32,448 nucleotides of DNA from an uncultured Methanosarcinales archaeon (lineage in GTDB: Archaea; Nanobdellota; Nanobdellia; Woesearchaeales; GW2011-AR9): assembly GCA_964582035.1 (NCBI GenBank), contig CAZOPZ010000004.1, positions 1 to 32,448 on the forward strand, in the 5' to 3' direction. The position numbers and the translations under genes were made by a program. This document shows positions 966-32,448 of the stretch, in pieces; position 1 is the stretch's first letter; each line of letters begins with the position of its first letter. The notes under the pieces were generated by a model. It saw nothing but the letters and a program-made list of their open reading frames with translations. It did no database searches and was not told where the DNA came from.

Positions 966-1016
966 CTAGAGGACGTATATTCTGAATATCTTTGACTTTT
1001 AGCCTGTGAAAAGAGC

Positions 1017-1034
1017 CACTGGACACACTGGACA
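1017..1034 (+). repeat. Tandem direct copies of the same 9-mer CACTGGACA (x2)
   Basis: cactggaca occurs at 1017-1025 and again at 1026-1034, 50 nt upstream of ATG 1084. Confidence 0.9.
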
Positions 1035-1083
1035 GCTGCGGGCAAAGCTCATAAACAACATCTTTCATTGTAGCAGTAAGAAG

Positions 1084-1962
1084 ATGGACATTTCACATAT
1101 GATTGTAAAAGAGGGCTTGCGCAGAGGATTAAGCCCCCGGACGATAAAGACGTACTGCTCGTGTGTTGAGCGCTTTTTCCGGCGGACACACAAAGATCCG
1201 TATTCGATGAAAAAAGAAGATATCTTGGCATTTTTGGATGGCCTTATTGAAAAGAATGCTCCTGGCAATACAACAAATGTATATGTGCACGCACTGAAAT
1301 TCTTCTACGAGCGAGTCTTGCATCGTCGGCTTACTCTCAATATTCCTCTCCAGAAAAAGCCGCGGCGATTGCCGGAGTTTCTGAATAAGGAGGAAGTCGC
1401 TCACGTATTACGCACGATAGAGAATGCGAAGCACCGGCTCCTTGTTTCTTTGCTCTATGGTGCGGGCTTGCGGGTGAGTGAAGTTGTGCATCTGAGAATA
1501 AGGGACTTTGACTTTACCGGCAATTATGGTTGGGTACGTCAGGGAAAAGGAAGAAAAGACCGCTTGTTTATTCTTCCCCAAGCATTGAAAGAAGAGCTGC
1601 TTGCCCATATTGCCAAAGAAAGTCTTGCTCCCGACGACTGGCTTTTCCAAGGCTGGCATGGCCATTTTTCGACGCAAAGCGTTCGGCAGATCCTCAAAAA
1701 AGCGTGGCAGAAAGCCCAATTGCAGAAGAGAGTCCATCCGCACATGTTCCGGCATTCGTTCGCGACGCATCTCATTCAGAACGGCTATTCCGTGCTTGAA
1801 GTGCAGCCGTTGCTCGGGCATAGCAAGATAGAGACGACGATGATTTACCTGCATCTCGCAGCCCCACAATTGTTAAAAGTGCAGAGCCCGTATGATGCGT
1901 TAGCTCAAAAATCGCTTGCGGTGCCGGATGAAAATACAACGAGTAAAGTATCGGGACATTGA
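1084..1962 (+). CDS. xerA: Tyrosine recombinase, XerA/XerC/XerD-like
   Basis: Catalytic signature present: GAGLRVSEV (Arg), HMFRHSFATHL (H-x-x-R), LLGHSKIETTMIYLH (His/Tyr). There is an N-terminal SAM-like core-binding domain. The start was moved from the track's GTG 1006 to ATG 1084, giving 292 aa, the typical size. Confidence 0.9.
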   Translation: MDISHMIVKEGLRRGLSPRTIKTYCSCVERFFRRTHKDPYSMKKEDILAFLDGLIEKNAPGNTTNVYVHALKFFYERVLHRRLTLNIPLQKKPRRLPEFLNKEEVAHVLRTIENAKHRLLVSLLYGAGLRVSEVVHLRIRDFDFTGNYGWVRQGKGRKDRLFILPQALKEELLAHIAKESLAPDDWLFQGWHGHFSTQSVRQILKKAWQKAQLQKRVHPHMFRHSFATHLIQNGYSVLEVQPLLGHSKIETTMIYLHLAAPQLLKVQSPYDALAQKSLAVPDENTTSKVSGH

Positions 1963-4125: not shown

Positions 4126-5262
4126 ATGGCAAGCCGCATCGATGCTGATAACCAACGCTACAAAAAGAAAGTCAAGCAATTGCTCCACAAGAAGCTGGGG
4201 AAGTACATTGGCTCAGAGAAGATGCGGGTTTCTCAGAACGGGAAGCGTGTTTCTATAAATATACCCATCATCCCTATACCCCATTTTGAGTATGACCGCG
4301 GCAGCGTCGGCGGCGTGAGTGCTGGCGACGGAGAAGAAGGCGATCTGCTTTTTGGCGATCAGCCCGGGGATGGCAGTGGTGCCGGCGACAGTGGTTTTGA
4401 GGAAGGTGACCGTGTCGATTTTTCCTGTGAAGAGTTGACGGATTTGCTTATTGAAGACTTACGGCTGCCGAAGCTGAAGCCGACGGATTCCGGCGATATT
4501 ACGGAGAAAAGAGTCCGGTATGATTCCATCTCGCGGACTGGGCCGCAATCTTTACGCCATCCTCGCCGAACCTTAAAGCAAGCGCTCAAGCGGTCCATCG
4601 CCACCGGCACGTACCAGCCCGGCGATCCCTTCATGCCCTCTCGGGAAGACTTTCGATATCGCGCCCCGGCCATCGAAGATATTCCTCTGGCGAGTGCGCT
4701 CATCATTGATCTGATGGATGTTTCTGGCTCGATGGATGATGAGAAGAAAACCATTGTCAAGACAGAAGTATTCTGGCGCGACCGCATTCTGGAACGCTTA
4801 TATCAGCAGGCTTTGGGGCAGAACTATCAGGGGATTAAACGCCGGTATGTGGTGCATACTGCGGATGCCAAAGAAGTTTCCGAATACGATTTTTTTCACT
4901 TGCAGATCAGTGGCGGCACGAAGATTTCTGCGGGCTATGAGAAAGTCAATAGTATTATTGACGAAGAGAAAAAAGCGGGCATGCAGAACATCTATGTGTT
5001 TCATTATACGGACGGGGAGAATTTCGACTCTGACCAGATGGCGAGCATCAAAGCGCTGCAGGAGATCATTGCCGAGACGAATCTCGTCGGTTATACCCAG
5101 ATTGGCAGTGATCACCAGTTTCTGAATGTGCTGCGTTTCAATTTCCGGGAAGCTTTTGATTGCGGGGACTTAGTGGCTTCCCTTATTCAGCCGGACAAGG
5201 ATCCCGCGATTGGTGAGCAGATCCTGAATTCTATTAAGGAGAAACTGCAGCAGGGGAGATGA
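4126..5262 (+). CDS. DUF444 (YeaH/YhbH-like) protein with a vWA/MIDAS domain
   Basis: N-terminus RIDADNQRYKKKVKQLL and MIDAS-like DLMDVSGSMDD are typical of the YeaH/YhbH family. The start was moved to ATG 4126. A TATA-like GTTTTTATATG lies at 4057-4067, followed by a GAGAGG Shine-Dalgarno-like leader. Confidence 0.7.
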   Translation: MASRIDADNQRYKKKVKQLLHKKLGKYIGSEKMRVSQNGKRVSINIPIIPIPHFEYDRGSVGGVSAGDGEEGDLLFGDQPGDGSGAGDSGFEEGDRVDFSCEELTDLLIEDLRLPKLKPTDSGDITEKRVRYDSISRTGPQSLRHPRRTLKQALKRSIATGTYQPGDPFMPSREDFRYRAPAIEDIPLASALIIDLMDVSGSMDDEKKTIVKTEVFWRDRILERLYQQALGQNYQGIKRRYVVHTADAKEVSEYDFFHLQISGGTKISAGYEKVNSIIDEEKKAGMQNIYVFHYTDGENFDSDQMASIKALQEIIAETNLVGYTQIGSDHQFLNVLRFNFREAFDCGDLVASLIQPDKDPAIGEQILNSIKEKLQQGR

Positions 5263-7772: not shown

Positions 7773-8933
7773 TCATCCTCTGGGGTCTTCGATCCGGTTC
7801 ATAAAGAGAAGCGCGCCCGTGCTATAATCGATAACGGCTTCTAAGAAAGGCCTATCAACGACAAATTCAATGGGGTTTCGGGGGAGAGAAACACTCCTAA
7901 GACTCACTGCAAAGCCGGTCGCCGCTGCCCCTTCTGAGCCCTCTTCATCTGTTTTAAAATAGGTCTGATGAACCCCGCTACTCACAAACAAAGGCCCCGG
8001 CCCCATGTTTTGGAATTCTGCTCGAGAATCGTCAAACATGCGCTCGATTCCCAGGGCCCGGAGGGGTGCTTGGAGATCAAACTTTCCTTTGACTTCATGC
8101 TTGGGTATTTCCAGCCGGGCAAATTTTTCCGAGCTAAGCTCTGTTATGATATCCCACAGGCTCGTGTGGCTTTCAGAGAAATCAGTTTCTAAGCCCCTTA
8201 TACTAGATCCTTTAGGCGGTAAGAAGATCAGGGTTGCCAAGTGCTTCCCTTGGTACGGGAGCAGTACTGCTTGCACCCCATCAAATTCTTTATAGCAAAA
8301 CGTAGGGAGGCCCCGGGGAGAATCAATACTGCCCTTCCTCATCATATCGACGTGCACCTTTTCTCCGCTCGAGAGCGTGAAGTCCTGTTTTTGCGTATAT
8401 TTGGGGTCGAATCTGTTATCCCACTGCGCTTTGAAATACAAAGCGTTGGCAAGAACGAGTCGGGTTAAAGATTCAATAGAACCTGCAGGGAACAATTCAG
8501 GGATTTTCCCCTCAGTTTTTCTTCCGATCCAAGCGTTTATGCCGGCTCTCTCTTTTTCAGGATTTCCGGTAAAATCGGCAGCGGCGACCTCGGCTCGGTA
8601 ATTGTCTTGTACCGTCTGTTTGAACTTTGGGTGTATCGGATATTGTTCAGCGATCCAGAGGCCGTTCGCACACCGTATCGTATGGGGAACATGTGTGGCA
8701 TTTAAGGCATCGGTGAGTTCTCGGATGCCTTTTTCTCGTATGGAAAAATCATTAGGGAGATGAGCTACTCCAGAAAGTTGTCGGGCAGTTTCTCCCTTTG
8801 CTCCCTCATAGAGCATGCCTAAAGCAACCCGGATGCTGGTTGGCGAGATAGAAAGGTTCCCTTCTCCGAGCTGGGACAGTAAAGAAAGTCCAAATGGAAT
8901 ATCCCCATATGTAACGGTGTTATCGTGCAGCAT
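7773..8933 (-). CDS. Serpin (inhibitory type); no N-terminal signal peptide evident
   Basis: The hinge and reactive-centre loop read EEGSEGAAATGFAVSLRSVSLP, followed by FVVDRPFL. The 386-aa length is typical for a serpin. A TTTATAAA box lies about 30 nt upstream. Confidence 0.9.
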   Translation of the reverse strand: MLHDNTVTYGDIPFGLSLLSQLGEGNLSISPTSIRVALGMLYEGAKGETARQLSGVAHLPNDFSIREKGIRELTDALNATHVPHTIRCANGLWIAEQYPIHPKFKQTVQDNYRAEVAAADFTGNPEKERAGINAWIGRKTEGKIPELFPAGSIESLTRLVLANALYFKAQWDNRFDPKYTQKQDFTLSSGEKVHVDMMRKGSIDSPRGLPTFCYKEFDGVQAVLLPYQGKHLATLIFLPPKGSSIRGLETDFSESHTSLWDIITELSSEKFARLEIPKHEVKGKFDLQAPLRALGIERMFDDSRAEFQNMGPGPLFVSSGVHQTYFKTDEEGSEGAAATGFAVSLRSVSLPRNPIEFVVDRPFLEAVIDYSTGALLFMNRIEDPRG

Positions 8934-9465: not shown

Positions 9466-9583
9466 GCAATTAGGTTTTTTATTTCACGCTACCCATTGAA
9501 GAAATTCTTTTCCAATCGTATTCCGGGGGAATGAAACAAATCGGGTATACGATGAAGTAAACTTTTTTCTTGAGAAAGCGAGT

Positions 9584-9670
9584 AGCGGAGGGTGGATTTG
9601 AACCACCGACCTCTGGGTTTCTAACCATTGTTATGAGCCCAGCGGGCACTCCTAGCTGCCCTACTCCGCT
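9584..9670 (-). tRNA. tRNA-Met(CAU), initiator-type, with a 13-nt intron at position 37/38 (intron 9619-9631)
   Basis: Hand-folded cloverleaf: AGCGGAG/CTCCGCT acceptor (A1:U72), GGGC/GCCC D stem, CTGGG-CTCATA[ACAATGGTTAGAA]A-CCCAG anticodon arm with three G:C pairs next to the loop, GGTGG-TTCAAAT-CCACC T arm, discriminator A. A TTTTTAAA box lies 28 nt upstream. CCA is not encoded. Confidence 0.85.
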
Positions 9671-11121: not shown

Positions 11122-14100
11122 ATGTATCCTCTGACCTACGAAAAAAGAGAAGTGGCGTTTTTTGTAGCAGTGCTGCTCTTCGTGCTCGGCCTCAGCAGCA
11201 TCATATTTCTTACTGGTGGCAGCATTACCGGAGCAGTCGTGGGCGCTTCTGCAACAGGCCCGGCAGCAGGACTCTCTGCGGCCGATAGTGATCGCATTGC
11301 CGAAGATGTCCTTGACGAGCGTGTTCTGGAAACTGTTGCAGACGAAGAGGAAGCGTCTGTCATCGTCGTCCTGAAAAGCAGTGCTTCTTCCGATTCGGAA
11401 GCGGTACGAGAACAGCAAGCGGCAGTGTTGGAAACCTTAAGCCCGGAAGAGAAAACGCTGTTCGGCTTTACTATTCAGGAAAAAGAGTTTACCGTCGAGC
11501 AGCAATATGCCACCCTGCCCGCCTTTGCCGGAATGGTTACGGAAGCCGGCTTGGAGGAATTGGCTAAGAATCCCGCAGTTGAGAAAGTGGTTCTGAATGA
11601 GATACAGCATATTTTTTTGGATACTTCCGTGCCGCTCATTGAAGCACCGAAAGTGTGGAATATAACGGTCAATGGCACCGCTATCACTGGTGATGGGGAA
11701 ACGGTTTGTGTTATAGATACGGGTGTTGATTACACGCACCCTGCAATGGGTGGCTCTCTGGGCGTAAAAGTTCTGGGCGGCTATGATTTTGTGAATGATG
11801 ATGCCGACCCGATGGACGATCACGGGCATGGGACGCATGTCGCGGGCATTGCGGCTTCCACAGATGCGACGTACAAAGGCGTCGCTCCCGAAGCAAAGAT
11901 TGCTGCGGTAAAAGTCTGTAATTCTCAGGGTGCTTGTGCCGATGCGGATGTTCTGGCCGGGATGGACTGGTGTATTTACAATGCGACTCTCTACAACATT
12001 TCCGCAATCAGCATAAGCCTGGGCGGCGGGCAATATAGCTCATCCTGTGATGCAGATGATAGTTTTATCTCTTATGCTCAAGTTATCAATGCCGCAGTAG
12101 GAAAGAATATCAGTGTTGTTGCGGCCACGGGAAATAGTGGTGCAGGCGGTATAGCCGGCCCGGCCTGTGTTAAAAATGCTACGAAAGTAACAGCTTCGAC
12201 AGATGGTGATACCATTGCTTCATTTGCCTCTCGCCATCAGAACTTTCCGGAGATCCTCGCTGCGCCGGGGTCGTCCATCATCTCTTTAAAAAAAGGGGGT
12301 GGGGTGACAATACCCCCCTGGTCCGGTACTTCTATGTCTACTCCTCACGTTTCCGGCGCCATTGCCTTGCTCCGGCAGTACTGGCGCCTGGCGTACGGAA
12401 TAGTGCCGACACCGGAGCAACTGGCCACGAAGCTTCGCCTTACCGGCGTTCCCATTGCTGATGGCAGTACTGGCGCAACGTTCTCTCGCATTGCCATTTT
12501 GGAAGCTGTTCAGCCGTACCTTAATTTCACCGCAGAAACGCCGCAGAACGGCACAGTGCTGAATAGCACTCCTGCACCGAATAGTACTGCTGTGTCGAGT
12601 ACACCTGCACTGATTATAGTCGCAGTGACTGCTGATGTTCCTTTAAGCTCTGCACTCTTAGAGTGGCAGTATCCCAATGGGACCGTGCAGAATCAGACCA
12701 TGGCTGCTCTTGACGAGGAACAGAAATGGTTCTCGCTCAATCTCTCGCTGCTTGAGGAAGGGCTACATGCATATCGCGTGTATGGCAGCGATGCTGTCGG
12801 GACTACGGGAAAGACCAGCTTACGGATGCTCCAACTGGCAGGAAATAGTTCCGGGAATAGCTCGGAGAATAGCTCTTCACCGCTCCCCACGTCATTATCT
12901 CTGCAACTGACATCACCGCTCAACAATTCCCGGTTTGGCAGAGCAGTAATATCTTTCAATGCCACGGTGAATGCTTCTCAGCCCGTTTCCAGCGTAAAAT
13001 TTGTGGTTACAAACGTGTCTTTGAATGAGACAATGAACATAACACTCTTTGCCTCTTCGTTCGATAATATCAGCTGGAATGCCTCTCTGGACGTGCTGCT
13101 GTTGAGCGATGGTGATCATTCGGTTATGGCGTTCGTCAACGATACAACGGGGCGAGAGAATCAGAGCACTGCCAGCAATTTTACCATTGATAGAACCAGC
13201 CCGATATTCAGTGATGTACAGGCCGATGCTACGGAGAATGCCAGCATCATCACTTTTTCTCTCGATGAAGCGGCGAATGCGAGTATCGTGTACTGGCCGG
13301 CATTGGCTGAGAGCCTTTTCGTCGGAAATGCCTCTTTTTCAACGGTGCACACTTTTTTCCTGACGGCCCTAAACTCTTCAACACTCTATTCTTACAATCT
13401 CACGGCCTGCGACGGCTTTAGCAATTGCCGGACGGCTGGTGTATATACTTTTACGACTCTAGCCCTGAACGTGAGCAACCAAACGGGGCTGCCGGGAAAC
13501 GAGAGCGGACTGCCGGAGAATAATTCGTCAAATTCCTCACCAGACAACTCTTCGGGGAACAACAACTCTTCAAATGACTCGTCAAATAATTCTTCCAACA
13601 GTGATGGAAGCAGCGATGAGAACAATAGCGATGATAGCTCCGCCAATAACTCTTCTAGCTCGTCAGGAAGCTCTGGCTCTTCGGGCAGCAGTGCTGGTGG
13701 TGGCGGCAGCAGTTCTTCTGGTTCAGAAACGGAGAGTGCTTCTGAGCCCGTTCCTGAAGAAAGCTCAAATTCTTTAACGACGGCCGCAGTTGCTGACGAG
13801 AGCCCCGAGCCGTCGGTTGAAGAAGTTCCCGAGCCCGTCGAAGAGCTTCCGGAAGTGGCAACGGGATCTGCTGAACAGGTCATACAGCTGAACGTCGGCG
13901 AAATAACGGAAGTTGCTTTTACTGATGCGCTGATCCCGATTAGAAAGCTGATTGTAGAAGGGAGAACTGCGAAAGACGTGACGATTTCCGTCGAGAATCT
14001 GAATGCGCTGCCGGAAGGTGTTCTGGCTCTTGAAAATGCGTATCAATATCTGGAGATGAAAGGCTTGGCCAGCAGCGATTTTAGCGGTGCCCAGGCGCAA

Positions 14101-14469
14101 TTTGTGGTGCAGAAATCCTGGCAGGAAGAGCAGGCTGCAGCTGGCCGCGTGGTAGTCCTCTTGGTGCATGAAGACGATGGCTGGCAGCCTTTGTCGACGA
14201 AGCGGATAGGAACGCAGGATGATGCCGTGCTGTATGAAGCTGAAGTGCCGCATTTCTCGCTCTTTGCCATTGGTGTAAAAGAAAAAGGAGGTTTCTTAGT
14301 GGGTGGAGCGATTGCGAATCTCTTTTCCGGAGCATCATCAGGCAGCGCCGTCATTGTCGGGTTTTTCCTCCTGGTACTGCTGGGCAGCGGCATTCTTTTG
14401 GTGATTCTCAGAAAGCGCTCTAAAACGGCTGAAAGCAATGAAGATGAGCGGCTGCTCCGATTTGAATAG
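11122..14469 (+). CDS. Membrane-anchored S8 subtilisin-like serine protease. Domains: N-terminal signal or anchor, I9-like propeptide, catalytic domain, sequon-rich repeats, Ser/Asn/Gly linker, PGF-pre-PGF-like domain and a C-terminal transmembrane helix.
   Basis: Catalytic triad motifs VIDTGVD, HGHGTHVAG and SGTSMSTPHVSG. Dozens of N-x-S/T sequons. The segment LYEAEVPHFSLFAIGVKE precedes a C-terminal transmembrane helix and an RKRSK stop-transfer sequence. The gene starts 20 nt after the sppA stop with no promoter of its own. Confidence 0.9.
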   Translation: MYPLTYEKREVAFFVAVLLFVLGLSSIIFLTGGSITGAVVGASATGPAAGLSAADSDRIAEDVLDERVLETVADEEEASVIVVLKSSASSDSEAVREQQAAVLETLSPEEKTLFGFTIQEKEFTVEQQYATLPAFAGMVTEAGLEELAKNPAVEKVVLNEIQHIFLDTSVPLIEAPKVWNITVNGTAITGDGETVCVIDTGVDYTHPAMGGSLGVKVLGGYDFVNDDADPMDDHGHGTHVAGIAASTDATYKGVAPEAKIAAVKVCNSQGACADADVLAGMDWCIYNATLYNISAISISLGGGQYSSSCDADDSFISYAQVINAAVGKNISVVAATGNSGAGGIAGPACVKNATKVTASTDGDTIASFASRHQNFPEILAAPGSSIISLKKGGGVTIPPWSGTSMSTPHVSGAIALLRQYWRLAYGIVPTPEQLATKLRLTGVPIADGSTGATFSRIAILEAVQPYLNFTAETPQNGTVLNSTPAPNSTAVSSTPALIIVAVTADVPLSSALLEWQYPNGTVQNQTMAALDEEQKWFSLNLSLLEEGLHAYRVYGSDAVGTTGKTSLRMLQLAGNSSGNSSENSSSPLPTSLSLQLTSPLNNSRFGRAVISFNATVNASQPVSSVKFVVTNVSLNETMNITLFASSFDNISWNASLDVLLLSDGDHSVMAFVNDTTGRENQSTASNFTIDRTSPIFSDVQADATENASIITFSLDEAANASIVYWPALAESLFVGNASFSTVHTFFLTALNSSTLYSYNLTACDGFSNCRTAGVYTFTTLALNVSNQTGLPGNESGLPENNSSNSSPDNSSGNNNSSNDSSNNSSNSDGSSDENNSDDSSANNSSSSSGSSGSSGSSAGGGGSSSSGSETESASEPVPEESSNSLTTAAVADESPEPSVEEVPEPVEELPEVATGSAEQVIQLNVGEITEVAFTDALIPIRKLIVEGRTAKDVTISVENLNALPEGVLALENAYQYLEMKGLASSDFSGAQAQFVVQKSWQEEQAAAGRVVVLLVHEDDGWQPLSTKRIGTQDDAVLYEAEVPHFSLFAIGVKEKGGFLVGGAIANLFSGASSGSAVIVGFFLLVLLGSGILLVILRKRSKTAESNEDERLLRFE
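13510..13725 (+). repeat. Low-complexity Ser/Asn/Gly/Asp-coding tract within the S8 protease
   Basis: It encodes NNSSNSSPDNSSGNNNSSNDSSNNSSNSDGSSDENNSDDSSANNSSSSSGSSGSSGSSAGGGGSSSSGS. Confidence 0.8.
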
Positions 14470-17269: not shown

Positions 17270-18151
17270 ATGGAAAAGCTGGAGGCACTTCTCATGACAT
17301 CACACACAACAGACAACAACTCCCCACACGATATAAATTGGTTATATGCAGCAAAAAACTTTGTTCATTACATTACTCTAAAAAAACTTGAACAACCTAA
17401 AAGGGCAAAAGCAATAAGGGAATTATCTGAACTTCTAGAATCTACAGCAAAAGAAACTGCTTTAAGACTTTCAAGTTTAGGCGACTCTTTAGAGGATGAA
17501 GAAACTGATACTATGCCACCTGAAATAGATACTATTATTTCTGAAGCGTATGATAAAATTATGTCCGAGGCATCAAGAAAATATGATGAATATCAATCTA
17601 TGAAAGCTCTTACAAAAGATGAAGAAGCTGATTTTAATGAATTCATAAGAAAATTTGTAAAAGAAGATCTTTATGCGTGGATCTATGACGTTGGGGAAGA
17701 ATTGGTCGCAGAATCAAATCTTCAGTTACATGTTGCAGCGGATGAAGATAAACGAAAACATGCGGAATATTTAGCTTCTGCAGGGATAAATACTCCCGAA
17801 GGACAGGCTGCTTGGTACGTTGCACATTTTGCGGGCACATCACTCTCTAGACTTTTTCGCGGTTATACAGGTAGTGGTATAACGTTTACAAATGAAGTAA
17901 AAGCAACTAAAGATCAGTTTAATCTGTATTTACACATTGCCCTGGCGGAAGGGTTTGCATGCGCAAAGGAAACAGCTATTATTGCAGACCCAGATAATTC
18001 CAGAGAGGCTGTAAAACAATGGTTACGTTCGGAGATTGAATATAGATTATCAAAAGGACTTGAATTTAATCTACTTGAGAACGTAAGCATCAAACAAGAT
18101 CAAGATGGATCTATTCACTTAAGACCAGAAAGAAGACCAGATCCATATTAG
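17270..18151 (+). CDS. Hypothetical protein (293 aa) in an AT-rich islet
   Basis: ATG lies 24 nt downstream of ATTTAAAAAT. The ORF is long with no competing frames. No family was recognised. Confidence 0.65.
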   Translation: MEKLEALLMTSHTTDNNSPHDINWLYAAKNFVHYITLKKLEQPKRAKAIRELSELLESTAKETALRLSSLGDSLEDEETDTMPPEIDTIISEAYDKIMSEASRKYDEYQSMKALTKDEEADFNEFIRKFVKEDLYAWIYDVGEELVAESNLQLHVAADEDKRKHAEYLASAGINTPEGQAAWYVAHFAGTSLSRLFRGYTGSGITFTNEVKATKDQFNLYLHIALAEGFACAKETAIIADPDNSREAVKQWLRSEIEYRLSKGLEFNLLENVSIKQDQDGSIHLRPERRPDPY

Positions 18152-27950: not shown

Positions 27951-28133
27951 TCAGCAACAGCTTTTTCTTTGCTTTTTTTCTCCTTGGTACTTCATCTTTT
28001 CGGAATACTCCTCTTCATGCCCGCAGTCTAAGCAAGAGATGTATTTCTTCTTTTCATACTTATAAACATCCATGTGGCAGCTCCGGCACTTCGTGCAGCA
28101 GAATTTGTCTTCCGGGCCGGCGAGATGGACCAT
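27951..28133 (-). CDS. Zinc-ribbon mini-protein (60 aa)
   Basis: CCTKCRSC...CLDCGH (paired CxxC). ATG 28133 lies about 25 nt downstream of a minus-strand TTTTTATATA box. The track's GTG 28187 start would read through the tRNA 3' exon. Confidence 0.55.
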   Translation of the reverse strand: MVHLAGPEDKFCCTKCRSCHMDVYKYEKKKYISCLDCGHEEEYSEKMKYQGEKKQRKSCC

Positions 28134-28166
28134 AGCCGGAAAAGAGGAAGAAGAAGTATATAAAAA

Positions 28167-28381
28167 TGGCGGCACCGTGACTTTCACACAGCAAGCTACG
28201 CTGTTCTGCTCGTGGTGGGCTAAGCGAACGAAGTGAGCTTATGCCCGCCTAACTTGCATAGATTGCTTGCTTTGAACACGGGATCTCCACGTCACCCAGT
28301 CACAGAGTTTTTCATCGGCCGAAGCCTCATTGCTCAACTCCTATGAGCGTGGCGCTATGAGCCAGGCTGAGCTATGCCGCC
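28167..28381 (-). tRNA. tRNA(CAU) (elongator Met or Ile2) with two introns: 49 nt at 37/38 (28293-28341) and 90 nt at T-loop 59/60 (28181-28270)
   Basis: Hand fold of the minus strand: GGCGGCA/TGCCGCC acceptor, TA, GCTC-AGCCTGG... D arm, CCACG-CTCATA[intron]A-CGTGG anticodon arm, AGATC variable loop, CCGTG-TTCAAA[intron]T-CACGG T arm, discriminator A. The spliced length is 76 nt. An ATTTTTATAA box lies 29 nt upstream. Confidence 0.8.
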
Positions 28382-28405
28382 AATATGGCGAAAAGAAGGC
28401 GGCGG

Positions 28406-28415
28406 TTATAAAAAT
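28406..28415 (-). promoter_or_regulatory. TATA box for the two-intron tRNA
   Basis: The minus strand reads ATTTTTATAA, centred 29 nt upstream of the tRNA 5' end (28381). Confidence 0.6.
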
Positions 28416-28456
28416 CTTTTGTGAGAAAAGGCTGTCCTGCTTGCTCAACTGCAGCT

Positions 28457-28987
28457 CTAAGAAGGAGAGGTTGTCGAGCTGGCAAAGCCACTCACTTGTC
28501 TTTCTTGGACCAGCTCTTCCAGTCGGGGAGAAAACCGGGGCTTCCAGGACTCGCATGGTGTTGCATAATGTCTTCTTACTTTTGGAGAAAATCCACTATA
28601 ACGAACTCCACTCCCCTTATCATAATCCGGATCAGCTACCCGACAATACCAACCCGATGTCGCATCTTGAGCATCAATTGTTTCTCTTCCAAGATTCACG
28701 CAAGATTGGCAGCCACCTTCAGAATACTCCCTATATGCTTCAATGGCGCTTTTCGCGGATGATAAGTCAATGCGGATTCCGATGCTTCCCTCCACTCGGT
28801 ATTCACCAGCTTCACCTGCTTCCAGAACTCTGGTTAAACTTGCATTTCCAAAAGAAGGCTCTACTTTTCCTATGCTACTTCTGACATCCTGCAATAAAGA
28901 GAGAACCTCTCCCGGAACTGATTCCGAAGGGATATTTCCCAAAGGTTTCATTGTTCGTTCATAGACAATTGTTTGGGATAATGGCAT
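28457..28987 (-). CDS. Hypothetical protein (176 aa) with a CxxC...C...C arrangement
   Basis: Longest coherent ORF here. A TATTTATAG box lies about 35 nt upstream. No family was recognised. Confidence 0.55.
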   Translation of the reverse strand: MPLSQTIVYERTMKPLGNIPSESVPGEVLSLLQDVRSSIGKVEPSFGNASLTRVLEAGEAGEYRVEGSIGIRIDLSSAKSAIEAYREYSEGGCQSCVNLGRETIDAQDATSGWYCRVADPDYDKGSGVRYSGFSPKVRRHYATPCESWKPRFSPRLEELVQERQVSGFASSTTSPS

Positions 28988-31156: not shown

Positions 31157-31663
31157 TTATAGGAGTTTCCGTTCTTTGCGGGCAGAAAGGGGAGGGGGGG
31201 GAGGTGGCAGGGGAGCCGACCCTCTTGCCATACTGGGTGCACCCATTTCCTGCTGCAAAAGTGGCGGTGCCATGCGCAGACCGGGCAACGGAGGAATGCC
31301 CATGCGGTGCTGGAGCATGCTGGTGGGAGTGGGCGGAGCACCGACAGACGGCGTAGAACGCGGCCGGGAAGGCAGCGCTGCCCGCTGTTCAGAGAGCGCC
31401 AGAAGCCCTTGTGCTAACGTTTCCGTGCGCCGAAGCACCGTTTTCATATCTTCTTTCAACGACAGCAAACTGCCGCCGACCTCTTCTTCTTTGGCTTCTT
31501 TCAACGCTCGCTTAAAAATGGCATTCAGCTCATGGATGGAATCTTTCAGCGTTTCCATCTCCAGAAAGAGCTCTTTCGTCTGGGCAACGGGATGCTCTAG
31601 GCGCTTCTTCAGGTCTTCCACTTCCTGCCGCAGATGCAGTAAAAGGTCTTTTTCAGATACCAT
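31157..31663 (-). CDS. Coiled-coil protein with a proline-rich C-terminus including PPPPPP (168 aa)
   Basis: The N-terminal ~95 aa are helical or coiled-coil. The C-terminus reads PSRPRSTPSVGAPPTPT...PPLPGLRMAPP...PLPPPPPPLS and is encoded partly by a G8 run (31194-31201). Confidence 0.6.
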   Translation of the reverse strand: MVSEKDLLLHLRQEVEDLKKRLEHPVAQTKELFLEMETLKDSIHELNAIFKRALKEAKEEEVGGSLLSLKEDMKTVLRRTETLAQGLLALSEQRAALPSRPRSTPSVGAPPTPTSMLQHRMGIPPLPGLRMAPPLLQQEMGAPSMARGSAPLPPPPPPLSARKERKLL

Positions 31664-31806: not shown

Positions 31807-32448
31807 ATGGAAATCGGCCCCATTATCCAAAAGCAGTTCCTGCGTATCGATGCGGAAGCGCCCGTATCCCAGCATCGGCAAGCTGAAGCAAAACCACGAG
31901 CAGGCAGTTTTAGTCTTCAAGAAAGACAAGTATATCGGTGTTTTAGAAAAAAGAGGGCTGCTCCGCTCGAAGATGAACCTGCAGGAAGCCAAAGTGCGGA
32001 ATTACCTGAAGAAAGTGCCGCTGCTGGGAGAGTATGAAGACCTTATTTCTACGGCTTATCTGTTGTATGAAAGCAATGCTGATTTCCTTCCTGTCCAGCG
32101 GCGCGGGGAAATTATTGGCGTTGTTCACGCTTTGGACATCGTCGCTTTTGCGACGGTGCTGCCAGAAGCCAAGTCTTTCCGGGTGCAAGATGTTCGTCTG
32201 GTGCGCTCGGCAAAAGTAACGGATAGTGATCCTATTGCCACGGCTATCGAGTACATGCAGAATGAGCGCATTGATCGCGTTCCCGTATTCAAAGCCGGAA
32301 GCCTCTATGGCATCATCAGCTATCAAGACCTGCTGCAGAAATACCTGCAATGGGTCCCCACCAAAACGTCTTCCGCCCGCCTGCAGAAAGAGGCCGGCAG
32401 GAGCAGGGGCGCGCAGGACGATCGCTTACGCTGGGCCGGGCTGCCGGT
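31807..32448 (+). pseudogene. CBS-domain protein with an apparent 1-nt frame break at about 31868-31873; open at the 3' window edge
   Basis: ATG 31807 lies 30 nt downstream of CATTTATATATC and reads MEIGPIIQKQFLRIDAEAPVSQ. The CBS-like sequence then continues in the +1 frame (IGKLKQNHEQAVLVFKKDKYIGVLEKRGLL...GIISYQDLL) to the window end. An alternative in-frame ATG at 31850 would truncate the first CBS motif. Confidence 0.6.

Follow-up and report, generated by a model that had tools for sequence, protein, structure and literature searches.

The closest described counterparts of the gene reported here are the disrupted tRNA genes of ARMAN-2 (Ca. Micrarchaeum), in which pre-tRNACys(GCA) carries an intron at position 59/60 and pre-tRNAPro(GGG) carries introns at 53/54 and 59/60 (Fujishima et al. 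2011, PMC3239211). The 59/60 intron of the ARMAN-2 pre-tRNACys lies in a relaxed hBH motif and is cleaved in vitro by the organism's own endonuclease (PMC3239211), and among DPANN archaea alpha4 endonucleases with an L3 loop accompany more disrupted tRNA genes (PMC5829648). Multi-intron tRNA genes and intron transposition have been described for the Thermoproteales (Sugahara 2008, Fujishima 2010, as related in PMC4033280). Further parallels concern what the intron itself may do. In Nanoarchaeum equitans, elongator tRNAMet has a 66-nt intron that is a stable RNA and shows C/D-box features (Randau 2012, PMC3491384), and in Haloferax and other Euryarchaeota a box C/D guide is described inside the intron of pre-tRNATrp (D'Orval 2001, Singh 2004, as cited in PMC11408192 and PMC7994747). 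Similarly, sR-tMet of Haloferax volcanii and a C/D sRNA of Pyrococcus are aimed at C34 of tRNAMet (Joardar 2011, as summarised in PMC7994747).

The locus considered here occupies the minus strand (28381-28167) of a 32,448-nt stretch of archaeal DNA, referred to throughout as the window. We are confident that it is a functional, disrupted tRNA(CAU) gene, most likely encoding elongator tRNAMet, in a DPANN host. The tRNA is divided into three exons of 40, 22 and 14 nt by two introns, one of 49 nt at 37/38 and one of 90 nt at 59/60; all coordinates proposed in the initial annotation of the DNA proved exact.

28406-28420, minus strand: promoter, with a purine-rich BRE-like AAAAGA (28420-28415) and the TATA box TTTTTATAA (28414-28406)
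28342-28381, minus strand: exon 1, GGCGGCATAGCTCAGCCTGGCTCATAGCGCCACGCTCATA, 40 nt, tRNA positions 1-37 including 17a, 20a and 20b (acceptor 5' strand, D arm, anticodon 5' strand and the loop bases CUCAUA)
28293-28341, minus strand: intron 1, 49 nt, canonical position 37/38; the cloverleaf forms only after its removal
28295-28298, minus strand: UGGG, the intron-1 strand of the 4-bp central bulge-helix-bulge (BHB) helix, pairing with C32-A35 in the local minimum-free-energy (MFE) fold
28271-28292, minus strand: exon 2, tRNA positions 38-59 (A38, anticodon 3' strand, variable loop AGAUC, T-stem 5' strand and TTCAAA)
28181-28270, minus strand: intron 2, 90 nt, non-canonical T-loop position 59/60, folding as a long imperfect hairpin
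28167-28180, minus strand: exon 3, tRNA positions 60-73 (U60, T-stem 3' strand, acceptor 3' strand and discriminator A73)
28157-28166, minus strand: T5 run and putative TATA box of the next gene, TTTTTATATA; the sequence is retained in orthologs and both roles are inferred

The initial annotation had read a tRNA(CAU) gene with introns at 37/38 and 59/60 at this site and had proposed a tRNA finder as the check. ARAGORN is blank on the unspliced locus, as is an Rfam scan, whereas the 76-mer joined in silico is called by ARAGORN as tRNA-Met(cat) with a full cloverleaf. The acceptor (GGCGGCA/TGCCGCC), anticodon (CCACG/CGTGG) and T (CCGTG/CACGG) stems pair throughout, and removal of the 59/60 intron restores both the canonical tRNA sequence, with the T loop TTCAAAT (UUCAAAU), and the cloverleaf. 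U8, A14, G15:C48, G18G19, A21, G26 and U33 are all in place, as are G53:C61, T54-T55-C56 and A58. In the D arm, C13 and U22 are mismatched and the loop has 11 nt, just as had been noted from the sequence; CCA is not encoded after discriminator A73. With the Rfam tRNA covariance model, the ortholog on contig L040, whose exons are identical and which has intron 1 only, reaches 45.3 bits (E = 6e-9). The suggestion that spurious open reading frames mask the gene also holds: a MAG gene caller has placed a spurious 54-aa ORF over the locus. Elsewhere in the window, the GC-rich islands at 31160-31400 and 32340-32448 show nothing tRNA-like by inspection.

Comparison with other assemblies supports the reality of the locus. 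An independent NCBI MAG contig (L003) matches it at 100% identity, and two Logan assemblies (L001, L002), which take in exon 3 and intron 2 and both stop at 28270, agree with it there throughout; an assembly artefact is thereby excluded. Five syntenic contigs (L024, L035, L040, L057, L058) from two related lineages carry exons identical at 76 of 76 positions, so that exon 1 is the same in all five as well as in L003. They have a homologous intron 1, but in them TTCAAA runs directly into TCACGG, with precisely the 90 nt missing. Over the 2.2 kb downstream, which L024, L040 and L057 cover, identity to the window is only about 84%. Orthologs with the same exons thus differ in the presence of the 59/60 intron or in intron sequence, where the intron-1 hairpin has been replaced. 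The gene arrangement around the upstream 176-aa protein is kept only in close relatives; its homologs at 54-62% identity stand in other gene neighbourhoods with no adjoining CAU tRNA. The homolog in L005 is followed by a Zn_ribbon_2 protein, to which the small CxxC protein encoded downstream in the window shows no similarity.

The host belongs to the DPANN, with relatives among MAGs that carry the label Nanoarchaeia or Nanoarchaeota; it is not a Thermoproteales-type crenarchaeon. The initial annotation had considered multi-intron tRNAs with T-loop introns to be known mainly from such crenarchaea; in DPANN, 59/60 introns had already been documented (ARMAN-2; PMC3239211). Like the Thermoproteales genes, this gene combines two introns, a non-canonical position and relaxed BHB motifs with a recent gain inferred by genome comparison. 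It differs in its superphylum, in its G+C content of about 48%, in its groundwater setting and in that no similar intron copy, such as would point to transposition, was found in another tRNA gene.

Expression and processing can be outlined as follows, with each step predicted from sequence. The BRE/TATA promoter, about 29 nt upstream, would direct a precursor of about 218 nt that ends in the T5 run after A73. A TATA promoter had been proposed at this place, and the block containing the TATA box is invariant in an alignment of the window with four ortholog contigs; the 24-nt spacer between the promoter and tRNA position 1 is variable. The T5 run directly after A73, likewise invariant in the orthologs, is likely the tRNA terminator, and the bases of TTTTTATATA may also serve the next gene, whose ATG is at 28133, as its TATA box. 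The precursor ends would be trimmed and CCA added; an archaeal splicing endonuclease would cut the two BHB-like motifs, and ligation by RtcB would yield a standard 76-nt tRNA with the T loop UUCAAAU. We infer that the introns are released as circles.

By folding, both splice motifs are built to one plan. The anticodon or T stem leads into a 4-bp helix in which the first four loop bases pair with the intron's 3' end. A 3-nt bulge would hold the 3' cut, and a small internal loop the 5' cut, which follows the sixth base of the anticodon or T loop. In local MFE folds, both 3' splice sites show the canonical geometry of stem, 3-nt bulge and 4-bp helix. For intron 1 this comprises the anticodon stem, the CUCA:UGGG helix and the bulge UG|A; for intron 2 it comprises the T stem, UUCA:UGAA, in which UGAA (28186-28183) of the intron pairs with U54-A57, and the bulge AG|U. 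Both 5' splice sites lie within small internal loops in these folds and not in clean 3-nt bulges. The loop measures about 3 x 6 nt at intron 1, and from 2x1 to 3x2 at the AA|G site of intron 2, which is of the relaxed hBH type. As modelled, the BHB motifs of both introns are relaxed, in agreement with how the junctions had first been drawn. Cleavage of such 5' sites would therefore need a broad-specificity endonuclease, for which we take the (alpha-beta)2, epsilon2 and alpha4 with L3 loop types as the relevant kinds. None of the 20 window ORFs scanned matches a splicing endonuclease (tRNA_int_endo), nor do these ORFs include genes for L7Ae, Nop5 or fibrillarin.

The arrangement resembles that of ARMAN-2 in its DPANN host, in its 59/60 intron, in a relaxed hBH-type BHB that uses the T stem as outer helix and in having more than one intron per gene. 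It is unlike ARMAN-2 in that the tRNA reads CAU, that the intron is of 90 nt rather than 13 nt and that it is combined with an intron at 37/38. The ARMAN-2 endonuclease is of the epsilon2 type. A further difference is that presence and absence among close relatives are documented for intron 2. Multi-intron tRNAs and introns at 59/60 have been described from DPANN before, and the gene adds to a known kind.

Judged from its homologs, intron 1 is old. The orthologs have homologous 51-nt introns at 37/38, and introns like it were seen at 37/38 in a Methanosarcinales MAG and in MAGs of Woesearchaeota, Nanoarchaeia, Micrarchaeota and Nanohaloarchaea type. A pattern scan of genome contigs gave 46 loci. 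Two elements within the intron bear on what it may do.

28332-28337, minus strand: anticodon-loop complement UUGAGC, complementary to tRNA positions 31-35
28312-28330, minus strand: K-turn candidate of the C'/D' type, composed of AUGA (28330-28327), the hairpin GGCUUCGGCC (28326-28317) and GAUGA (28316-28312)

The closest relatives carry CUGA-GAGCAUUUGCUC-GAUGA in the corresponding place. The K-turn (A/C)UGA-hairpin-(G/A)AUGA is kept in 13 distinct introns from five lineages with compensatory changes in the hairpin, whose sequence differs in nearly every lineage and which always pairs (3-6 bp). The bare box-hairpin-box motif itself is found in the window at chance level (two matches against 1.3 expected). 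Upstream of the D'-like box, the fifth nucleotide is the G at 28335, which pairs with C34. This register is constant in the same 13 introns, and the C or U next to the box covaries with G31 or A31. These observations suggest that the stretch could direct 2'-O-methylation of C34, a self-guided Cm34, as a candidate function.

This candidate function has several partial precedents. As in N. equitans, the intron lies at 37/38 of the same tRNA in a related phylum and holds box C/D-like motifs, a likeness drawn from the published description. The N. equitans RNA is, however, drawn as a C/D sRNA with a variant box C and a consensus box D, whereas here only one D'-hairpin-C' K-turn is evident. With the tRNATrp intron, intron 1 shares the 37/38 position, K-turn boxes and a stretch complementary to the anticodon loop of its own tRNA, for which the fifth-nucleotide rule gives C34 as the target. 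The tRNATrp intron is there presented as a complete C/D RNA with boxes C, D', C' and D and two guides (C34, U39); intron 1 has one K-turn and one short guide of 5-7 bp, in a different tRNA. The predicted target, the 2'-O of the wobble C34 in elongator (pre-)tRNAMet, is that given for sR-tMet and the Pyrococcus sRNA (PMC7994747), which are separate genes acting in trans; the candidate guide here would lie within the intron of its own target.

A quite different account of the same elements is also plausible, though we would stop short of calling it probable: the K-turn may be only a protein-binding or folding element, for instance one through which L7Ae aids BHB formation, with the complementarity incidental and no methylation taking place. 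The guide duplex is short. In this gene it amounts to 5 bp (-7.7 kcal/mol), which 19% of shuffled guides equal, and elsewhere it reaches 7 bp at most, compared with the roughly 8-12 nt by which a C/D guide is recognised. Intron 1 does have a K-turn such as a C-type box (RUGAUGA) and a D-type box (CUGA) form in C/D guides, as a single motif of C'/D' type. A terminal second C/D motif is absent from the intron, with no RUGAUGA near the 5' end and no conserved CUGA near the 3' end; where CUGA does occur near the 3' end in some lineages, it represents the BHB helix strand UGAG. This UGAG is needed for the BHB helix in any case, and a second copy could arise by duplication. Spacers in introns of this class are about 8 nt long, where archaeal C/D RNAs typically have 12 nt. 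Against a purely structural role, the distance from complement to box is fixed, with C34 at the fifth position in 13 of 13 distinct introns; the base beside the box covaries with nucleotide 31; and in other lineages the complement stretch is inconsistently paired within the intron. Furthermore, an RNA guide directs Cm34 formation in the elongator tRNAMet of Haloferax and humans and is predicted to do so in Pyrococcus (PMC7994747, PMC6601510).

Two other motifs fared less well. The CTGTGA-like element to which the initial annotation drew attention in both introns is the same in close relatives, is absent from the homologous introns of other lineages and lacks a GA partner in intron 2; we find no support for a function. 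A second K-turn at the 5' splice site of intron 1 (bulge UAG, GA opposite GUGA) was rejected, as an extra C breaks its geometry and it is not conserved. Returning to the self-guided reading, we tentatively place intron 1 in an old and widespread class of elongator tRNAMet 37/38 introns that may serve as a minimal, single-K-turn guide for their own C34, to which this gene would have added a freshly gained 90-nt intron at 59/60; as a whole, this proposal has in our judgement somewhat less than an even chance of being right. If true, it would represent a second kind of intron-embedded guide after tRNATrp, operating with a 5-7-bp duplex and no terminal C/D motif, and the relatives at about 84% identity, with and without the 59/60 intron, would form a natural before-and-after pair for intron acquisition.

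The identity of the tRNA had been left undecided between elongator Met and Ile2 in the initial annotation, where it could not be settled by eye; the D loop, A44 and intron homology now narrow it to probable elongator Met. An initiator is not in question, with G1:C72 and the anticodon stem CCACG/CGUGG in place of the initiator marks (A1:U72; three G:C pairs at 29-31/39-41), and an initiator-type CAU gene is located elsewhere in the window (9583-9670). The alternative with the same gene structure is an AUA-decoding tRNAIle2 in which C34 is converted to agmatidine. The CAU anticodon and A73 suit both identities, and overall identity to the two groups of CAU tRNAs is similar (51-57 of 76 positions). 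The call is thus based on features shared with one of these groups and on intron homology rather than on an isotype-specific model. The D loop AGCCUGG, A44 and the K-turn intron are common to this gene and the CAU tRNAs of GCCG/GGCG type, whereas those of GGGCCCG type have AGUCYGG and U/C44; moreover, the K-turn introns homologous to intron 1 are found only in the former group. The acceptor points the same way: among archaeal tRNAs, GGGCC acceptors are typical of tRNAIle and GCC...GGCA of elongator Met, and it is on this pattern and on PMC3491384 that the assignment of the GCCG/GGCG group to Met is based. A guide for the 2'-O of C34 would suit the Cm34 of elongator Met and not agmatidine, and it is for the elongator tRNAMet of N. 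equitans that a C/D-like intron has been reported (PMC3491384). We thus regard Ile2 as unlikely and the gene as probably that of elongator tRNAMet.

In contrast to intron 1, intron 2 looks like a recent, lineage-specific gain, which is the most parsimonious interpretation of the sequences. It is a clean 90-nt indel with respect to the five syntenic contigs, and its boundaries cannot be shifted. The insertion can be dated as recent, and its boundaries fixed to the base, because near relatives have identical exons and no 59/60 intron. In Micrarchaeota and Nanohaloarchaea-type MAGs, tRNA(CAU) genes are interrupted at the same two positions by introns of unrelated sequence; in the Nanohaloarchaea-type MAGs the 59/60 motif is a strict 3-4-3 BHB. 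It had been suggested that 90 nt is long enough to carry a function. No function of its own is evident: the closest relatives lack the intron, and a search of it for motifs that might carry a function found none. Rfam gives no match at E <= 10, and the z-score of its fold is only -1.86. Neither the window nor the 58 loci contain a second copy, and two scans of viral contigs gave no match. A hairpin of intron 2 that ends in ACCA resembles a minihelix, which we treat as coincidence.

Exon conservation would be expected shortly after an insertion too, so that exon identity alone is compatible with a very recent inactivation; the insert is missing from all relatives, carries near-terminal inverted repeats (GCAAGC...GCUUGC) and has a 5' site without a clean bulge. 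Single tRNA gene copies are, however, usual in DPANN genomes, which speaks against loss of this one. That the 90-nt insertion has left a young tRNA pseudogene, or is a small mobile element never spliced out, is very improbable, given that it sits exactly where introns are spliced from other DPANN tRNAs (PMC3239211), that the same tRNA in two other lineages also has a 59/60 intron, that the insert brings a UGAA placed to pair with U54-A57 and a 3-nt bulge beside the T stem, that there is neither a target-site duplication nor a second copy (window, loci, viral contigs) and that samples from three assemblies show no difference in the allele.

Taken together, our findings describe a functional, disrupted gene whose product is very likely essential for decoding and which is nevertheless missed by ARAGORN, Rfam and a MAG gene caller alike. 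Indeed, DPANN tRNA sets are reported as incomplete because such disrupted genes are missed (PMC5829648). Relatives that have identical exons and lack the 59/60 intron are useful for the question of how non-canonical archaeal tRNA introns arise. Finally, the K-turn and the anticodon-loop complement of intron 1 offer a testable link between tRNAMet introns and Cm34, a modification that is RNA-guided in archaea and humans alike.

The locus at 28381-28167 on the minus strand is well supported as a genuine tRNA gene interrupted by two introns:

28381-28342, minus strand: exon 1, 40 nt
28341-28293, minus strand: intron 1, 49 nt, at position 37/38
28292-28271, minus strand: exon 2, 22 nt
28270-28181, minus strand: intron 2, 90 nt, at position 59/60
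28180-28167, minus strand: exon 3, 14 nt, its last base the discriminator A73; CCA is not encoded

These boundaries, proposed in the initial annotation, match the minus-strand sequence exactly. ARAGORN returned no tRNA from the whole window, Rfam at gathering thresholds reported only an SRP RNA and a tRNA at 9583-9670 in the window, and a permissive Rfam scan of 28100-28460 found no tRNA. Excision of both segments yields, as had been predicted, a full tRNA, which ARAGORN calls tRNA-Met(cat), 76 nt long, its acceptor, anticodon and T stems all perfectly paired; excision of only one segment did not recover the correct call. The spliced 76-mer carries the universal bases U8, A14, G15:C48, G18G19, A21, G26, U33, G53:C61, T54-T55-C56 and A58, and the D-arm oddities noticed earlier, a C13-U22 mismatch and an 11-nt D loop, are present in it. 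The suspicion that spurious ORFs hide the gene is borne out by L003, an NCBI MAG contig, in which a 54-aa ORF was called at 777-941 on the minus strand (window 28072-28236, plus strand), overlapping exon 3, intron 2 and the 5' end of the adjacent gene; both the tRNA and that gene, encoding a small CxxC...CxxC protein, went uncalled.

Each arm was folded together with its intron. At intron 1, the anticodon stem continues into a 4-bp CUCA:UGGG helix with a 3-nt bulge UG|A on the 3' side, and the 5' cleavage point, UA|G, is part of an internal loop facing GUGAC, followed by a GGAGUU/AACUCU helix. At intron 2, the T stem continues into a 4-bp UUCA:UGAA helix with a 3-nt bulge AG|U, and the 5' cleavage point, AA|G, is within a loop of 2x1 to 3x2, beyond which stands a long imperfect hairpin (z = -1.86). 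These predicted folds give each intron a canonical 3' site and a relaxed 5' site of the hBH type, so that the bulge-helix-bulge (BHB) motifs drawn in the initial annotation were right in substance. Its TATA box corresponds to a promoter block, AAAAGA-TTTTTATAA (28420-28406, minus strand), 24 nt upstream of position 1, which is invariant in orthologs despite a varying spacer to the tRNA. A conserved TTTTT directly follows A73; we infer that it is a terminator and that TTTTTATATA is the TATA box of the small CxxC gene, whose ATG is at 28133.

A search for the D-arm and anticodon-arm pattern in one genome per archaeal or bacterial species gave 46 loci. Three had exons identical to the window's: L024 and L035 (Ca. 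Nanoarchaeia archaeon SMAG_U8103) and L040 (Nanoarchaeota archaeon C4_metabat.bin.89). Their tRNA genes measure 127 nt, intron 1 is kept (51 nt) and GTTCAAATCACGG is unbroken; an exon-2 scan of metagenomes added L057 and L058, with the same structure and downstream gene. Alignment A1 shows a single clean 90-nt gap, TTCAAA / TCACGG, whose flanking bases forbid shifting. Three lineages stand about equally far apart (the window; L024 = L057 = L058; L040): across them the 2.2 kb downstream are ~84% identical and the exon bases 76/76 identical. The L040 ortholog (95-221), standing in for the spliced gene in a covariance-model check, scored 45.3 bits (E = 6e-9) with the Rfam tRNA model. An assembly artefact is excluded because the window allele, 90 nt included, recurs unchanged across the locus in L003 (JACOVO010000099.1; GCA_016177285.1) and, over exon 3 and intron 2, in two Logan contigs, L001 (SRR12113384) and L002 (SRR12113383). 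Both Logan contigs end exactly at 28270, the border of exon 2 and intron 2, while their far ends differ (25625 vs 25629). The shared stop suggests an assembly-graph branch at the tRNA, possibly caused by co-occurring strains with the same exons, some of which lack the intron.

Parsing every 37/38 intron that is 40 nt or longer gave one architecture in 13 distinct sequences from five lineages. Their 5' half comprises a short spacer, [A/U]UGAG[C/U]N, (A/C)UGA and a 3-6 bp hairpin; the 3' half comprises (G/A)AUGA, 11-17 nt, the BHB helix strand and 2 nt. The boxes are fixed; the hairpin sequence changes in nearly every lineage yet still pairs (GGCUUCGGCC in the window, GAGCAUUUGCUC in its closest relatives). 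With xUGA immediately 5' of the helix and GAU-GA immediately 3', the geometry, judged by K-turn rules, likely corresponds to an internal (C'/D'-type) K-turn. The nucleotides preceding the box are complementary to tRNA positions 31-35, with complementarity extending to 37 in some lineages, and in all 13 introns it is the fifth nucleotide 5' of the box that faces C34, in line with the target rule of box D/D' guides. The neighbouring base covaries without exception, C with G31 and U with A31. The guide duplex in the window gene has 5 bp (-7.7 kcal/mol), and 19% of shuffled guides do as well; spacers are ~8 nt, no terminal C/D motif was found in intron 1, and the bare box-hairpin-box motif is about as frequent in the window as expected by chance (1.3 NUGA-hairpin-RAUGA motifs expected per shuffled window). 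The only other such motif in the window lies at 17619 (plus strand), within a 293-aa ORF without a family match. Intron 1 is a candidate guide for 2'-O-methylation of C34 (Cm34), a role to which we would give roughly an even chance. Precedents include the 66-nt intron of the N. equitans elongator tRNAMet, a stable RNA with C/D features (PMC3491384), and the tRNATrp intron, which directs Cm34 and Um39 (PMC11408192, PMC7994747). C34 of tRNAMet is targeted by separate C/D RNAs in Haloferax and, by prediction, in Pyrococcus (PMC7994747), and likewise in human (PMC6601510).

The recovered CAU tRNAs fall into a GGGCCCG group (D loop AGUCYGG, U/C44) and a GCCG/GGCG group (D loop AGCCUGG, A44, in part with K-turn introns). 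Because the window gene shows GCCG/GGCG-group features, and in view of the N. equitans intron and of a register directed at C34, it is probably an elongator tRNAMet. Initiator identity is ruled out by G1:C72 and the CCACG stem. An initiator-type CAU tRNA, with A1:U72 and a GGG/CCC anticodon stem, lies at window 9583-9670 (minus strand); it has a 13-nt insert, ACAATGGTTAGAA, 3' of A37 and a TTTTTAAAT box ~25 nt upstream, and scores 52 bits in Rfam while being missed by ARAGORN. Altiarchaeota and related MAGs (L013, L016, L031, L044 and L055; L043 and L051) contain other CAU introns: AU-rich 37/38 introns of 24 to >100 nt in GGGCCCG-type tRNAs, and introns of 118 nt and 151 nt in GCCGATG-type genes. 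None of these introns has the K-turn motif.

The host is a mesophilic-looking DPANN archaeon (~48% G+C), as indicated by the archaeal markers encoded in the window (SRP RNA, Nre and a Taw1-like radical-SAM protein), the labels of the nearest contigs (Nanoarchaeia / Nanoarchaeota, kingdom Nanobdellati, i.e. DPANN) and the Nanoarchaeota MAG name carried by one homolog of the adjacent 176-aa protein. Other genes of the window include:

27951-28133, minus strand: CxxC...CxxC protein, conserved in syntenic relatives
28457-28987, minus strand: 176-aa protein directly upstream of the tRNA, no Pfam match
1006-1962, plus strand: tyrosine recombinase (phage-integrase family)
7773-8933, minus strand: serpin
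11122-14469, plus strand: subtilase, 1115 aa
19919-21934, minus strand: gyrase B subunit

The 176-aa protein has 56 homologs (P0002-P0057; E down to 1e-64), and its gene neighbourhood is kept only in close relatives. On L004, a related DPANN contig, a LAGLIDADG_2 homing-endonuclease-family gene (4349-5023, plus strand) lies near a homolog.

The initial annotation had looked to Thermoproteales-type crenarchaea for multi-intron tRNAs. Such genes, and intron transposition, are classic there (PMC4033280); the host here, however, is not of that type, and 59/60 introns are known in ARMAN-2. Its pre-tRNACys has a 13-nt 59/60 intron of relaxed hBH form, cut in vitro by the epsilon2 endonuclease, and its pre-tRNAPro has introns at 53/54 and 59/60 (PMC3239211). 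DPANN with alpha4 enzymes bearing an L3 loop have more disrupted tRNA genes, and their incomplete tRNA sets have been ascribed to undetected disrupted genes (PMC5829648). Thus, the kind of locus is already known, and for DPANN a two-intron tRNA gene is ordinary.

A two-intron tRNA(CAU) also occurs in seven of the MAGs behind the 46 loci (L014, L021, L037, L041, L045, L047, L053; labels Nanohaloarchaea, Aenigmatarchaeota, Nanobdellati or just 'archaeon'), with a K-turn-type intron of 52-54 nt at 37/38 and one of 33 nt at 59/60 that folds as a strict 3-4-3 BHB (hBHBh'). Their spliced T loop would be UCCGAAU, with C at position 55, where U is near-universal. In a Micrarchaeota MAG (L022, 6323-6523, plus strand), tRNA(CAU) has a 65-nt K-turn-type intron at 37/38 and a strongly structured 60-nt intron at 59/60, unrelated in sequence to intron 2. 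Across the three lineages compared, T-loop introns have no sequence in common beyond the helix requirement, so position 59/60 of tRNA(CAU) has probably been hit independently.

No 59/60 intron was found in the outgroups L028 (Woesearchaeota) and L019 (Methanosarcinales), so a gain of intron 2 in the window lineage is more parsimonious than repeated loss. Intron 2 gave no family match, repeat, second copy or box motif (Rfam; window and loci; viral contigs), and the CTGTGA-like element proposed for both introns found no support beyond close relatives. On the simplest reading, intron 2 is a recent insertion, neutral or selfish, tolerated by the endonuclease. The gene is useful as a dated case of intron gain, and would represent one instance of a conserved, likely K-turn intron in elongator tRNAMet.
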